From IMG/VR virus record IMGVR_UViG_3300045988_017492: a stretch of DNA of 5,756 nucleotides. One strand, given 5' to 3'. The first letter of the stretch is position 1. The number at the start of each line of letters is the position of its first letter. Position numbers and translations under genes: made by a program. This DNA is from a virus. Below, in pieces: positions 4,327 to 5,756 of this stretch. The notes below the pieces were generated by a model. The model worked only from the letters and a program-made list of their open reading frames with translations. It was not told where the DNA came from and did not search any database.

Positions 4327-4719
4327 TTACACCCCCTTTCTGTATTTGTTGGGTCGTGTATCAACGTGCACCCAACTTGCGTAGACGATGATGCCGCAGC
4401 CAAATGGAATGATTTTGTTTAGTTTGTTGGCGATTTCCTTTGCGGTCATGCCTTCAATCCGGATGTCTGCTGCCATTCCTCGCATGTGATATGAGTACTT
4501 AGCACCGCCTACTTTTTTATTCCTTGCCGGTGTTCTGTATCCGCTGGTTATGTATACCGGCTTTCCGACTTGGTTTCTGAGAATATCCAAAATAGATACC
4601 AGATAGTCATCCACAAAAACTACCTGTGAACCATCCTGGCACGCAAATTCCCGCACTTTGAAGTGCTGCCCTATTTTTTCGTTTGCGTCTGTGTCCATGA
4701 TATAGCATTTGATTGCCAT
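4327..4719 (-). CDS. Zinc D,D-/L,D-peptidase of the M15 (LAS) superfamily, Peptidase_M15_3/YcbK-like; putative peptidoglycan hydrolase (endolysin), 130 aa
   Basis: The sequence contains ...FKVREFACQDGS...ITSGYRTPARNKKVGGAKYSYHMRGMAADI...WVHVD. It shows the SGYR-x-x-x-x-N-x-x-VGG block, an H-x6-D zinc-ligand pair (SYHMRGMAAD) and the distal VHVD histidine typical of M15A-type peptidases. The track start at 4728 is a GTG inside the SD. ATG 4719..4717 is preceded by GAGAGGTGA with a 5-nt spacer. No N-terminal signal peptide or TM segment is visible. Confidence 0.8.
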   Translation of the reverse strand: MAIKCYIMDTDANEKIGQHFKVREFACQDGSQVVFVDDYLVSILDILRNQVGKPVYITSGYRTPARNKKVGGAKYSYHMRGMAADIRIEGMTAKEIANKLNKIIPFGCGIIVYASWVHVDTRPNKYRKGV

Positions 4720-4743
4720 GGCGTTCACCTCTCTTCATTTTGG

Positions 4744-4772
4744 ATTTTACCATTTTTCTTGTCGCTTGTCAA
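4744..4772 (-). promoter_or_regulatory. Strong sigma-70/sigma-A-type promoter driving the whole gene array
   Basis: The minus strand reads ccaaaaaacaa-TTGACA-agcgacaagaaaaatgg-TAAAAT. The -35 element is a perfect TTGACA (4772..4767) and the spacer is exactly 17 nt. The -10 is TAAAAT (4749..4744) with an extended -10 TG (TGgTAAAAT). An A-rich UP-like tract lies upstream. The predicted TSS is near 4737, about 18 nt before the peptidase ATG. Confidence 0.7.
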
Positions 4773-4863
4773 TTGTTTTTTGGTTTGAATGGCGCTTTAG
4801 CGCCTTGCCGTGTGGAGCGCAGCGGAACTCGGCTTAATCCATTCATTTTTAGCGCTGTGCGCG

Positions 4864-5038
4864 TTTTCAACACTTTCAACATTTTCAACAGGTTTTCAAC
4901 ATAAAGTTGCACAATGATTTTCGTCATTTTGACGGACTTTCAACAATTCAACATTTTTTCCACAATTCTTTCAACAGTGTTTTTCGCTTGTTTTTAACGT
5001 TTTATCGTTATAAATTTATACTTTTCAACTTTTCCACA
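4864..5038. repeat. Array of ten same-orientation 9-mers, consensus yTTTCAACA (plus strand) = TGTTGAAAr (minus strand); iteron-like / DnaA-box-like
   Basis: Plus-strand copies are: 4864 TTTTCAACA, 4873 CTTTCAACA, 4882 TTTTCAACA, 4893 TTTTCAACA, 4937 CTTTCAACA, 4945 AATTCAACA, 4956 TTTTCCACA, 4968 CTTTCAACA, 5022 TTTTCAACT, 5030 TTTTCCACA. The first four are contiguous at 9/9/11-nt phasing. The two TTTTCCACA copies satisfy the relaxed DnaA-box consensus TTWTNCACA. Confidence 0.85.
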
Positions 5039-5072
5039 TACTCTACTACTACGTCTACAACAAGTTAATATA

Positions 5073-5119
5073 ATATACGCGCGCATGCGTGCGCGCTACG
5101 CGCGCGCGTGCGTGCGTAC
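5073..5119. repeat. 47-nt alternating purine-pyrimidine tract (CG/TG/CA-rich), Z-DNA-prone and hairpin-prone
   Basis: The tract atatacgcgcgcatgcgtgcgcgc|tacgcgcgcgcgtgcgtgcgtac alternates perfectly over 5073..5096 and 5097..5119, with one phase slip at 5096/5097. It contains a 7-bp hairpin (gcgcgca 5079..5085 with tgcgcgc 5090..5096), the 12-nt palindrome acgcgcgcgcgt (5098..5109), and an alternative 9-bp stem 5097..5105 with 5110..5118. Confidence 0.85.
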
Positions 5120-5124
5120 CGGCA

Positions 5125-5142
5125 GCCCCCTTGCTAGGGGGC
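5125..5142. other. Hairpin A1: GCCCCC-ttgcta-GGGGGC
   Basis: A 6-bp all-G:C stem (5125..5130 with 5137..5142) and a 6-nt loop. Confidence 0.75.
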
Positions 5143-5150
5143 GCTGACGG

Positions 5151-5183
5151 AAGGGGGTAGGCCGATAGGCCTACCCCCTTTTT
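5151..5183. other. Hairpin A2: 13-bp perfect stem AAGGGGGTAGGCC-gata-GGCCTACCCCCTT followed by T-run on the plus strand
   Basis: 5151..5163 pairs perfectly with 5168..5180 around the tetraloop gata. TTTTT at 5179..5183 follows on the plus strand only. Confidence 0.8.
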
Positions 5184-5226
5184 CGCTGATAACTGATTTA
5201 CATGGAGCTTTGAAGTCTATTTTCAT

Positions 5227-5243
5227 CCCCCCTTCTAGGGGGG
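5227..5243. other. Hairpin B1: CCCCCC-ttcta-GGGGGG (paralogue of A1)
   Basis: A 6-bp all-G:C stem (5227..5232 with 5238..5243). The loop ttcta compares with ttgcta in A1. Confidence 0.75.
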
Positions 5244-5256
5244 ATAATAGAGGGGT

Positions 5257-5289
5257 TAGCCCAGTGCTTACTTGATAGGTACTGGGCTA
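5257..5289. other. Hairpin B2: TAGCCCAGT ... ACTGGGCTA, 9-bp perfect stem extendable inward; starts 11 nt downstream of the Rep stop codon on the minus strand
   Basis: 5257..5265 pairs with 5281..5289. An inner extension (5267:5279, 5269:5277, 5270:5276) adds pairs, with two G:T pairs on the plus strand that become C:A mismatches on the minus strand. The lead-in GGGGTTAGCCC parallels GGGGGTAGGCC of A2. Confidence 0.75.
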
Positions 5290-5299
5290 GGTGACACCG

Positions 5300-5756
5300 T
5301 TAGAGCGTCCCCTTCTTCTTCGTTTGCTTTTTGATGACTCTTTCTTTTGTTTCGCATTGCTCTGCAAAGTCTGTGTTTTCATACTTTAGCCGGTTTTCTG
5401 CTATGGCTGCTGCCTGTCTGTTTTGTTTAATTCTCCACAATCTTTGTGGGTTTTCGGCTTCCATCATTTTTTCATAATAACGTGGAATTTGTGCGTGTTT
5501 TCCGTTTGTGCATTGGATGTATCCTTGTCTCCAGATTTCTGCTTTGTGTTCTTGATAATAGTTGTCTCCTAGTCCCGGTTTTAGGCTCATGCATGCGAAT
5601 GGTTTTTGTTGACCTAACTCGTAGTATTGGTTTGCTTTCTTTCCGTCTATTTCGTACATTTTTTTTGTGACGTATCCTGCAACATATCTGTAAGTTTCCG
5701 GTACTGCTTGTGCTATTTGTATTTGACCCATGCCCCATAGGTCTTCTAGCCATTTA
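5300..5756 (-). CDS. VP4: Replication initiation protein VP4, C-terminal part (stop TAA-equivalent codon at 5302..5300); same gene as 1..662 joined across the circle, 339 aa total
   Basis: The track ORF 5300..5731 begins at an internal Met (residue 197 of the full protein). The frame stays open to the window end and is in phase with 662..1 (5300-5657 = -357, divisible by 3). It contains YRYVAGYVTKK (5686..5661). Confidence 0.9.
   Translation of the reverse strand, partial: KWLEDLWGMGQIQIAQAVPETYRYVAGYVTKKMYEIDGKKANQYYELGQQKPFACMSLKPGLGDNYYQEHKAEIWRQGYIQCTNGKHAQIPRYYEKMMEAENPQRLWRIKQNRQAAAIAENRLKYENTDFAEQCETKERVIKKQTKKKGTL
5658..5756. repeat. Terminal redundancy, copy 2 (identical to 1..99)
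   Basis: See copy 1. Confidence 0.95.

Follow-up and report, generated by a model that had tools for sequence, protein, structure and literature searches.

A conserved stem-loop with the phiX174 cleavage core as putative viral-strand origin of a gut gokushovirus, located on the strand opposite to the genes

In phiX174, the origin of viral-strand synthesis is annotated at A4306 within the sequence CAACTTG^ATATTAATAACACTATAGACCACC (^ marks the cut), and protein A is described to cleave and religate at G4305/A4306 in the 30-nucleotide (nt) ori(+) via the two tyrosines Tyr343 and Tyr347 (10.64898/2026.07.25.740675). Here we compare this origin to a stem-loop, called B2, and the adjoining box AGGTGACACC, both of which are located on the + strand of the IMG/VR virus record IMGVR_UViG_3300045988_017492, a stretch of 5,756 nt that is referred to as the window throughout. 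As the first 99 bases of the window are repeated at 5658–5756, it represents a circle of 5657 nt. Its closest GenBank records are gut gokushoviruses from the faeces of pig, human and monkey, and the window is itself a circular gut gokushovirus, whose recognisable genes lie on the − strand without exception. To our knowledge, a viral-strand origin has been experimentally defined for phiX174-like phages only, and the Microviridae have so far been described as uniformly positive-sense. For other HUH nickases, a nick motif placed in the loop of a stem with conserved pairing is the standard origin layout.

The stem-loop B2 (5257–5289, + strand) consists of a 5′ arm at 5257–5267, the 10-nt loop TTACTTGATA at 5268–5277 and a 3′ arm at 5278–5289, while read as an inverted repeat its arms span 5257–5270 and 5276–5289, with CTTGA left as the loop once the fold is fully extended. 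The box (5289–5298, + strand), located 11 nt past the loop, shares its first base with the end of the 3′ arm and adjoins the stop codon of VP4, the replication protein (Rep). All eight contiguous bases around the phiX174 cut (ACTTG^ATA) are identical in the B2 loop, as are 8 of the 10 positions of the decamer. The phiX174 sequence ATAGACCACC is found 11 nt from the ACTTGATA core, a spacing equal to that of the window, and both 10-nt boxes end in CACC. Both elements measure about 30 nt overall and occur once per genome; TTACTTGATA and AGGTGACACC have one exact copy each in the window, on the coding strand of which we found neither a second copy of the element nor an ACTTGAT-like site accompanied by a box.

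VP4 is encoded on the − strand from 662 through the circle junction (position 1 equals 5658) to its stop codon at 5300–5302, with its 3′ part at 5300–5756, and matches the Pfam family REP_ORF2-G2P with an E value of 1e-18. Its HUH region can be aligned to that of phiX174 protein A, and its motif RYVAGYVTKK corresponds to FYVAKYVNKK of protein A, which holds Tyr343 and Tyr347, so that HUH and Y-V-A-x-Y-V-x-K-K motifs are common to this cognate enzyme family. VP4 is, as judged from these motifs, a putative HUH nickase with two tyrosines, the enzyme type matching protein A, and is expected to act on B2. B2 very probably represents the nick site of VP4, with G5274 and A5275 of the window + strand predicted to flank the cut, and the box AGGTGACACC is the putative Rep recognition sequence. 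Together (5257–5298, + strand) they are probably the rolling-circle viral-strand origin, from which the antisense strand would be packaged and to which three neighbouring hairpins, A1, A2 and B1, would be accessory. Cleavage core, cognate nickase and conserved single copy led us to file the element as a putative homologue of phiX174 ori(+). In the mechanism we propose, VP4 would act on the supercoiled replicative form, where it would recognise the box together with the 3′ arm, and the stem-loop would extrude, exposing TTACTTG^ATA. A cut at G5274/A5275 on the window + strand would leave a free 3′-OH to prime synthesis, while the + strand would be displaced, recircularised and packaged.

The element also differs from its phiX174 counterpart. 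In the window, the core is placed in the loop of a covarying hairpin of 11–12 base pairs (bp) and the ′spacer′ is the 3′ arm, whereas phiX174 has an unpaired, AT-rich spacer; the element is non-coding, whereas the phiX174 site lies inside the Rep gene (gene A); and in the window's clade it is found opposite the gene strand, unlike in phiX174. The layout of a loop nick motif, a variable but paired stem and an adjacent Rep-binding sequence is shared with the nonanucleotide stem-loop of CRESS-DNA viruses and with the pT181 and pMV158 origins, which however feature a different loop motif and Rep lineage. Some CRESS-DNA viruses are ambisense, whereas all genes lie opposite the origin strand here. 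No iterons were identified next to B2.

While the complete hairpin cluster is common to one GenBank record only (MG945694.1), the last 44 bases (5257–5300) recur with 85–95 % identity in dozens of microviruses that differ greatly from one another, among them genomes of 4.1–4.8 kb from sea squirt, honeybees and rodents. Across the copies read, the stem varies in sequence with its pairing kept, and the loop TTACTTGATA and the box AGGTGACACC are invariant. The exact pattern of loop, 11 arbitrary nucleotides and box is present in at least 119 microvirus-sized IMG/VR contigs. In 28 diverse copies, compensatory double changes were observed in 8 of the 12 stem pairs, a covariation reached by none of 500 shuffles, and the stem cells were paired in 85.5 % as compared to 23–42 % in slid controls. 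As a fixed-spacing motif proved too restrictive for distant genomes even when as many as 5 mismatches were tolerated, a covariance model, R1, built from the diverse B2 copies and a relaxed pattern with a stem check were used instead. R1 matches the + strand of the window with 64.9 bits (E value 6e-17), giving a weak − strand match at the same place. Among about 215 genomes chosen by VP1 homology alone, it detects the element in the majority. The broader consensus consists of a stem containing ..CAGTT.., the loop (C/T)TACTTGAT(A/G), the returning stem and then ..TGACACC. In the cultured Chlamydia phage Chp2 the element lies between VP3 and ORF8, on the coding strand, while SpV4 (L198, 511–543) and the cultured phiMH2K (L199, 3295–3334) carry the variant core TACTTGTT in a comparable hairpin on the sense strand. 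B2 and its box are an ancient element across the non-phiX174 microviruses sampled.

Two contigs carry two origin hairpins each with different upstream flanks, namely L173 (597–644 and 5243–5290), where both copies have the same orientation relative to the neighbouring genes, and L279 (2057–2103 and 6765–6812), where both are on the − strand. Being longer than one genome unit, both contigs possibly represent concatemers or chimeras assembled from related genomes.

Among the pattern-selected matches listed, the element is antisense to VP1 and VP4 in all 106 close relatives of the window and sense in all 17 distant microviruses; in samples chosen without the motif, 124 genomes carry it in sense orientation. 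Antisense copies are found in three separate places on the VP1 tree, which we compared to the T-A skew measured on the coding strand at 4-fold degenerate sites. The first is a large gut clade comprising the window as well as L137, L033, L044, L086 and L144–L153, with skews of −0.46 to −0.70, as opposed to +0.58 and +0.51 for the nearest sense genomes L154 and L155. The second consists of L173 together with L279 and L280, contigs from other samples, at −0.54 to −0.57, whose sense relatives at 63–69 % VP1 identity are mostly positive. The third is L166, a gokushovirus of standard type in which Rep, VP1, VP2 and VP3 follow each other on a single strand. It reaches −0.76, and its relatives share no more than 67 % identity, all hits detected in them being sense. 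Antisense lineages hence cover −0.46 to −0.76 with positive values in their nearest sense relatives, while sense genomes show a median of +0.33 and range from −0.55 to +0.82.

Packaged single-stranded DNA (ssDNA) undergoes C-to-T deamination. At 4-fold sites, the coding (viral) strand of phiX174 is composed of T.522, C.202, G.163 and A.113, and the window coding strand of A.515, G.207, C.172 and T.105, which is the complement of the phiX174 pattern; overall, the window coding strand contains 37 % A and 18 % T. The coding strands of Chp2 and SpV4 are T-rich at 4-fold sites as well, and NNT codons and a T-rich packaged strand are a known signature of ssDNA phages (PMC3278643). The ten genomes L144–L153 had been flagged by their negative skew alone, without a hit of the model, and all ten then showed a diverged antisense copy (…TCTTGATG… …TGACACA), so that the relationship between skew and orientation made a correct prediction.

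In the three inverted lineages and in most sense lineages, the T-rich strand at 4-fold sites is the one with the element. In the simplest reading, it is this element-bearing strand that occurs as ssDNA, and the inverted lineages would consequently package the antisense strand. With the origin on the + strand and all genes on the − strand, the virion of the window is expected to carry the antisense strand, and we regard it as fairly likely that the window's clade does so. An earlier note on this DNA, made from its letters alone, had taken the reverse complement of the window as the viral strand, which is probably wrong, as element orientation and skew both point to the window + strand.

Alternatively, B2 could be a Rep-binding origin while the coding strand is still packaged, if VP4 cuts the strand opposite the TTACTTGATA loop, if the site is used for replication from replicative form to replicative form only, or if the skew has a cause other than packaging, such as host codon usage or purine loading of the mRNA. 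The palindromic stem can indeed form a hairpin on both strands, as reflected in the weak − strand match of R1, and A-rich coding strands in the sense genomes L243 (−0.55), phiMH2K (−0.31) and the L160 group (−0.39) indicate that such a skew can arise without inversion. This explanation is nevertheless unlikely, as the three independent inversions coincide with the most negative skews sampled while sister taxa are positive, and as loop and box are the exact reverse complement of the version on the coding strand of sense lineages, which argues for recognition of the same DNA strand sequence. Moreover, the ACTTGAT-like sequence with a box is missing from the window coding strand.

Several points weigh against the viral-strand origin and its inversion. 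The likeness between the box AGGTGACACC and phiX174 ATAGACCACC is modest, with 5 of 10 positions identical, and both the nick position and the packaged strand are what we infer. The VP1 tree was obtained by rough neighbour joining, and the L166 lineage is represented by one contig only. L243 (474–512) carries a genuine sense element at a skew of −0.55 and is a counter-example to the skew rule, while the group of L160, L172, L182 and L185 and the cultured phiMH2K are sense at −0.31 to −0.39, phiMH2K itself having −0.31. The G-versus-C skew shows no clean flip. The link between skew and orientation is statistical and not absolute. In addition, a complementary-strand origin would be equally tied to the packaged strand, so that orientation alone cannot separate the origin types and the assignment as ori(+) is based on the enzyme and on the agreement with the cleavage site of phiX174. 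The spectrum of rare G>A versus C>T variants at 4-fold sites of VP4 and VP1 in the clade left about 10–26 usable sites; with synonymous sites being saturated, this polarity test was uninformative. We lean slightly towards the broader view that the dominant mammalian-gut gokushovirus clade and at least two other lineages independently flipped their origin and encapsidate the antisense strand, the TTACTTGAT stem-loop with its TGACACC box being the missing viral-strand origin of non-phiX174 microviruses.

B2 is the last of four hairpins at the far end of the sole long non-coding region (4729–5299), directly after the VP4 stop codon. A1 (5119–5150) combines the core CCCCC-ttgcta-GGGGG at 5126–5141 with an imperfect outer stem and folds as ssDNA with −11.6 kcal/mol (z −3.2, this and the following individual z-scores being calculated against dinucleotide shuffles). 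A2 (5151–5180) is a perfect 13-bp stem, AAGGGGGTAGGCC/GGCCTACCCCCTT, with arms at 5151–5163 and 5168–5180 and the loop GATA (−16.8 kcal/mol, z −7.2). B1 (5216–5251) features the core CCCCCC-ttcta-GGGGGG at 5227–5243, which is extended by TCTATT/AATAGA and contains a 3-nt bulge (−12.2 kcal/mol, z −5.0), and B2 reaches −9.9 kcal/mol (z −4.0). The 201-nt region as a whole folds as ssDNA with −52.9 kcal/mol, compared to −27.8 ± 3.2 for shuffles (z = −7.8, 0 of 200). An inverted-repeat search and direct reading thereby confirmed the positions of the four hairpins that the earlier note had reported, and folding as ssDNA found all four stable beyond chance.

The same note had regarded the cluster as a diverged tandem duplication of a two-hairpin module. 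This holds for A1 and B1, the alignment score of which is 11 as opposed to −6.8 ± 3.5 for shuffles (p<0.0005), but not for A2 and B2, which align no better than shuffles (p=0.26). As B2 is present in every relative with or without A1, A2 and B1, it is not a copy of A2. The common word GGGG(G)TAG(G/C)CC is composed in part of the conserved B2 stem (TAGCCC) and in part of cassette sequence (GGGGT).

That these hairpins are relevant to ssDNA-phage replication, as the note had supposed, is borne out, while its assignment as a complementary-strand origin needs to be divided. Taken for the whole cluster including B2, such an origin would be recognised by host primase, PriA or RNA polymerase. Four stable hairpins clustered in the sole large non-coding region, none of them with a U-tract on the coding strand, would suit this role and resemble the G4 primase hairpins, the phiX174 PriA n′ site and the M13 RNA-polymerase hairpins, which are likewise clustered stable intergenic hairpins of ssDNA phages. 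In filamentous phages, minus-strand origin hairpins are located directly 5′ of the plus-strand nick hairpin; the RNA-polymerase hairpins of M13 lie just 5′ of it, as do A1, A2 and B1 with respect to B2, and a GC hairpin 5′ of B2 resembles this placement. A strand-specific single-strand initiation (ssi) signal would also hold a fixed orientation on the packaged strand, fitting the orientation and skew seen for B2. The B2 loop, however, is the cleavage core of the phiX174 gene A protein and not a known priming signal, and inversion of a minus-strand origin alone would leave packaged strand and skew unchanged. A1, A2 and B1 are absent from 85 of 101 clade variants, which sets the cassette apart from the complementary-strand origins of G4, phiX174 and M13, and no Rfam family was matched; a scan of 4600–5400 at a permissive threshold returned only chance-level miRNA and snoRNA matches far below gathering scores. 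We therefore consider a complementary-strand origin made up of the whole cluster quite unlikely. B2, with the phiX174 cleavage core in its loop and a stem that covaries family-wide, is much better explained as a + origin, and A1, A2 and B1 are not the general complementary-strand origin of the clade, while a possible priming aid is left to them.

The spacer that separates B2 from a conserved block (…TTTTCAACTTTTCCACA…CTACAACAAGTTA… with a CG-rich hairpin behind it) is hypervariable in the clade. Its 101 distinct variants comprise 85 without a GC hairpin, 8 with A1 and A2, 7 with A1, A2 and B1, and 1 with an A2-like hairpin only. A1 and A2 nearly always co-occur (15 of 101 variants) and B1 is found in 7 of 101. 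As 85 of the 101 variants lack all three hairpins, the cassette does not represent the clade's general complementary-strand origin. With regard to ssi signals, stable hairpins are present in the non-coding region and form on either strand, yet retention in close relatives is low for A1/A2 (15/101) and for B1 (7/101). The inner stem of A2 was found in five compensated versions, TAGGCC/GGCCTA, TAGACC/GGTCTA, TTGACTT/AAGTCAA, CTGACTT/AGGTCAG and GAGACC/GGTCTC, indicating that the cassette is kept for its structure; the search for compensatory substitutions suggested by the note thus yielded them in A2 as well as in the 8 of 12 stem pairs of B2. A1/A2 appear as a mobile two-hairpin cassette, and A1, A2 and B1 are not required for replication in most relatives.

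Between A2 and B1, the block CTGATAACTGATTTACATGGAG (5186–5207, + strand) is common to many clade members without GC hairpins. A CTGATACATGGAG-like block is found in 55 of the 101 variants, 49 of them without a GC hairpin, as counted with a substitution-only pattern that leaves out the window copy with its extra T.

In 66 % of 111 sense genomes, the nick hairpin has a GC-rich hairpin no more than 40 nt away on its 5′ side, as compared to 8.5 % of random windows and 4 % on the 3′ side. B1 together with B2 reproduces this common microvirus layout of a GC hairpin directly 5′ of the nick hairpin. Our best guess for A1, A2 and B1 is that they are auxiliary structures, serving as aids to ssDNA priming or to origin folding or termination, or as stabilisers of the mRNA 3′ end (3′ untranslated region).

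The latter leads to the explanation that the hairpins act in RNA, as terminators or 3′-end stabilisers of the polycistronic mRNA ending with VP4. They come immediately after the VP4 stop codon as the gene is transcribed, the region forms a very stable RNA fold (−91.9 kcal/mol, z −5.9), the A2 stem is compensated, and a GC hairpin follows a gene end in sense microviruses, too. For B2, however, the loops transcribed in sense and in antisense lineages would be complementary to each other, so that an RNA role could not be conserved. A terminator scan and direct reading agree that a U-tract follows none of the four hairpins on the coding (−) strand, so no intrinsic terminator of the type GC stem-loop plus U-tract exists at A1, A2, B1 or B2 on this strand, which bears out the note's view of them as poor terminators of the phage transcript. 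Moreover, a conserved terminator-like site is available further downstream at a CG hairpin, and A1, A2 and B1 are absent from most relatives. We consider an explanation of the cluster by RNA function very unlikely, while a role at the RNA level is possible for A1, A2 and B1 only and is compatible with B2 acting as the viral-strand origin.

On the + strand, A2 is followed by five T (5151–5185), which gives it the form of an intrinsic terminator, albeit of the non-coding strand. Against a role as terminator of a small + strand transcript, no convincing upstream + strand promoter was found and the T-run is lacking in some cassette variants.

In the searchable literature, which leaves older papers in subscription journals outside, we did not find a gokushovirus viral-strand origin, the motif in a microvirus context or a microvirus of inverted polarity. 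A large microvirus survey does not discuss origins or hairpins (PMC9239249). The closest description was given by Olo Ndela et al. in 2022, who reported conserved hairpins in very small microviruses and left their function open (PMC9865509). These hairpins are also intergenic, located next to Rep and endowed with identical loops and compensatory stem changes; in contrast to the present analysis, only minus-strand initiation is considered for them, and the passages of that paper on hairpins, origins and strands contain neither a link to the phiX174 nick core nor an analysis of orientation.

A recognisable shared origin gives a natural zero point for these genomes, a handle for synthetic replicons and an assay combining VP4 with oligonucleotides. 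If the assignment is true, the TTACTTGAT stem-loop with its box could act as a marker for the orientation and annotation of metagenomic genomes by the thousands. Negative-sense Microviridae would then exist, overturning the assumption that virion strand and mRNA strand are the same for the most abundant gut microviruses, and genome polarity would switch repeatedly within one family of ssDNA viruses. Such switching is possibly eased by palindromic hairpin signals, which are available on both strands. An inverted origin would affect how probes and primers are designed and how strand-specific ssDNA viromes are interpreted, as well as analyses of mutation spectra and codon usage and models of replication-transcription conflict.

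Further signals are found upstream in the non-coding region. An alternating purine-pyrimidine CG tract at 5077–5119 forms a 20-bp hairpin with arms at 5077–5096 and 5100–5119 and the loop TAC; on the − strand it is followed by GTATATTATATTAAC and flagged as terminator-like by the scan, and two-unit CG tracts occur throughout the window's clade. This CG hairpin is a better candidate for a universal signal than A1, A2 and B1, be it as operon terminator, complementary-strand origin or Z-DNA or cruciform former. About ten copies of TTTTCAACA or TTTTCCACA, all on the + strand and resembling DnaA boxes (TTWTNCACA), are located at 4864–5038, a region conserved even in gokushoviruses that are otherwise little like the window. 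Across the whole window, DnaA boxes are not significantly enriched (16 matches versus 12.7 expected), with the matches clustering at 4864–5038. The AT-rich word AGTTAATATAATATAC (approximately 5063–5078), flanked by the conserved CTACAACAAG block on one side and the CG hairpin on the other, is reminiscent of the XerD arm and spacer in dif sites of Firmicutes. Some gokushoviruses are described to integrate via dif-like sites (PMC7062461).

The operon of the − strand is opened by a strong sigma-70-type promoter (4772–4744) upstream of the M15 peptidase gene, which is near consensus with TTGACA, a 17-nt spacing and TG-n-TAAAAT (11 of 12 matches), and its extended −10 element hints at a host resembling Firmicutes or Proteobacteria and not Bacteroidetes. 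The M15 peptidase (4728–4327) is the first gene, followed by ORF5 (3852–3607), the scaffold protein VP3 (3677–3216), the capsid protein VP1 (3219–1543; Pfam Phage_F, E value 5e-135) and VP2 (1504–659), all on the − strand. Within the VP2 gene, short TTGGCTTTGGCTTTG repeats at 849–868 and 1325–1378 would give rise to a simple repeated peptide in this pilot protein.

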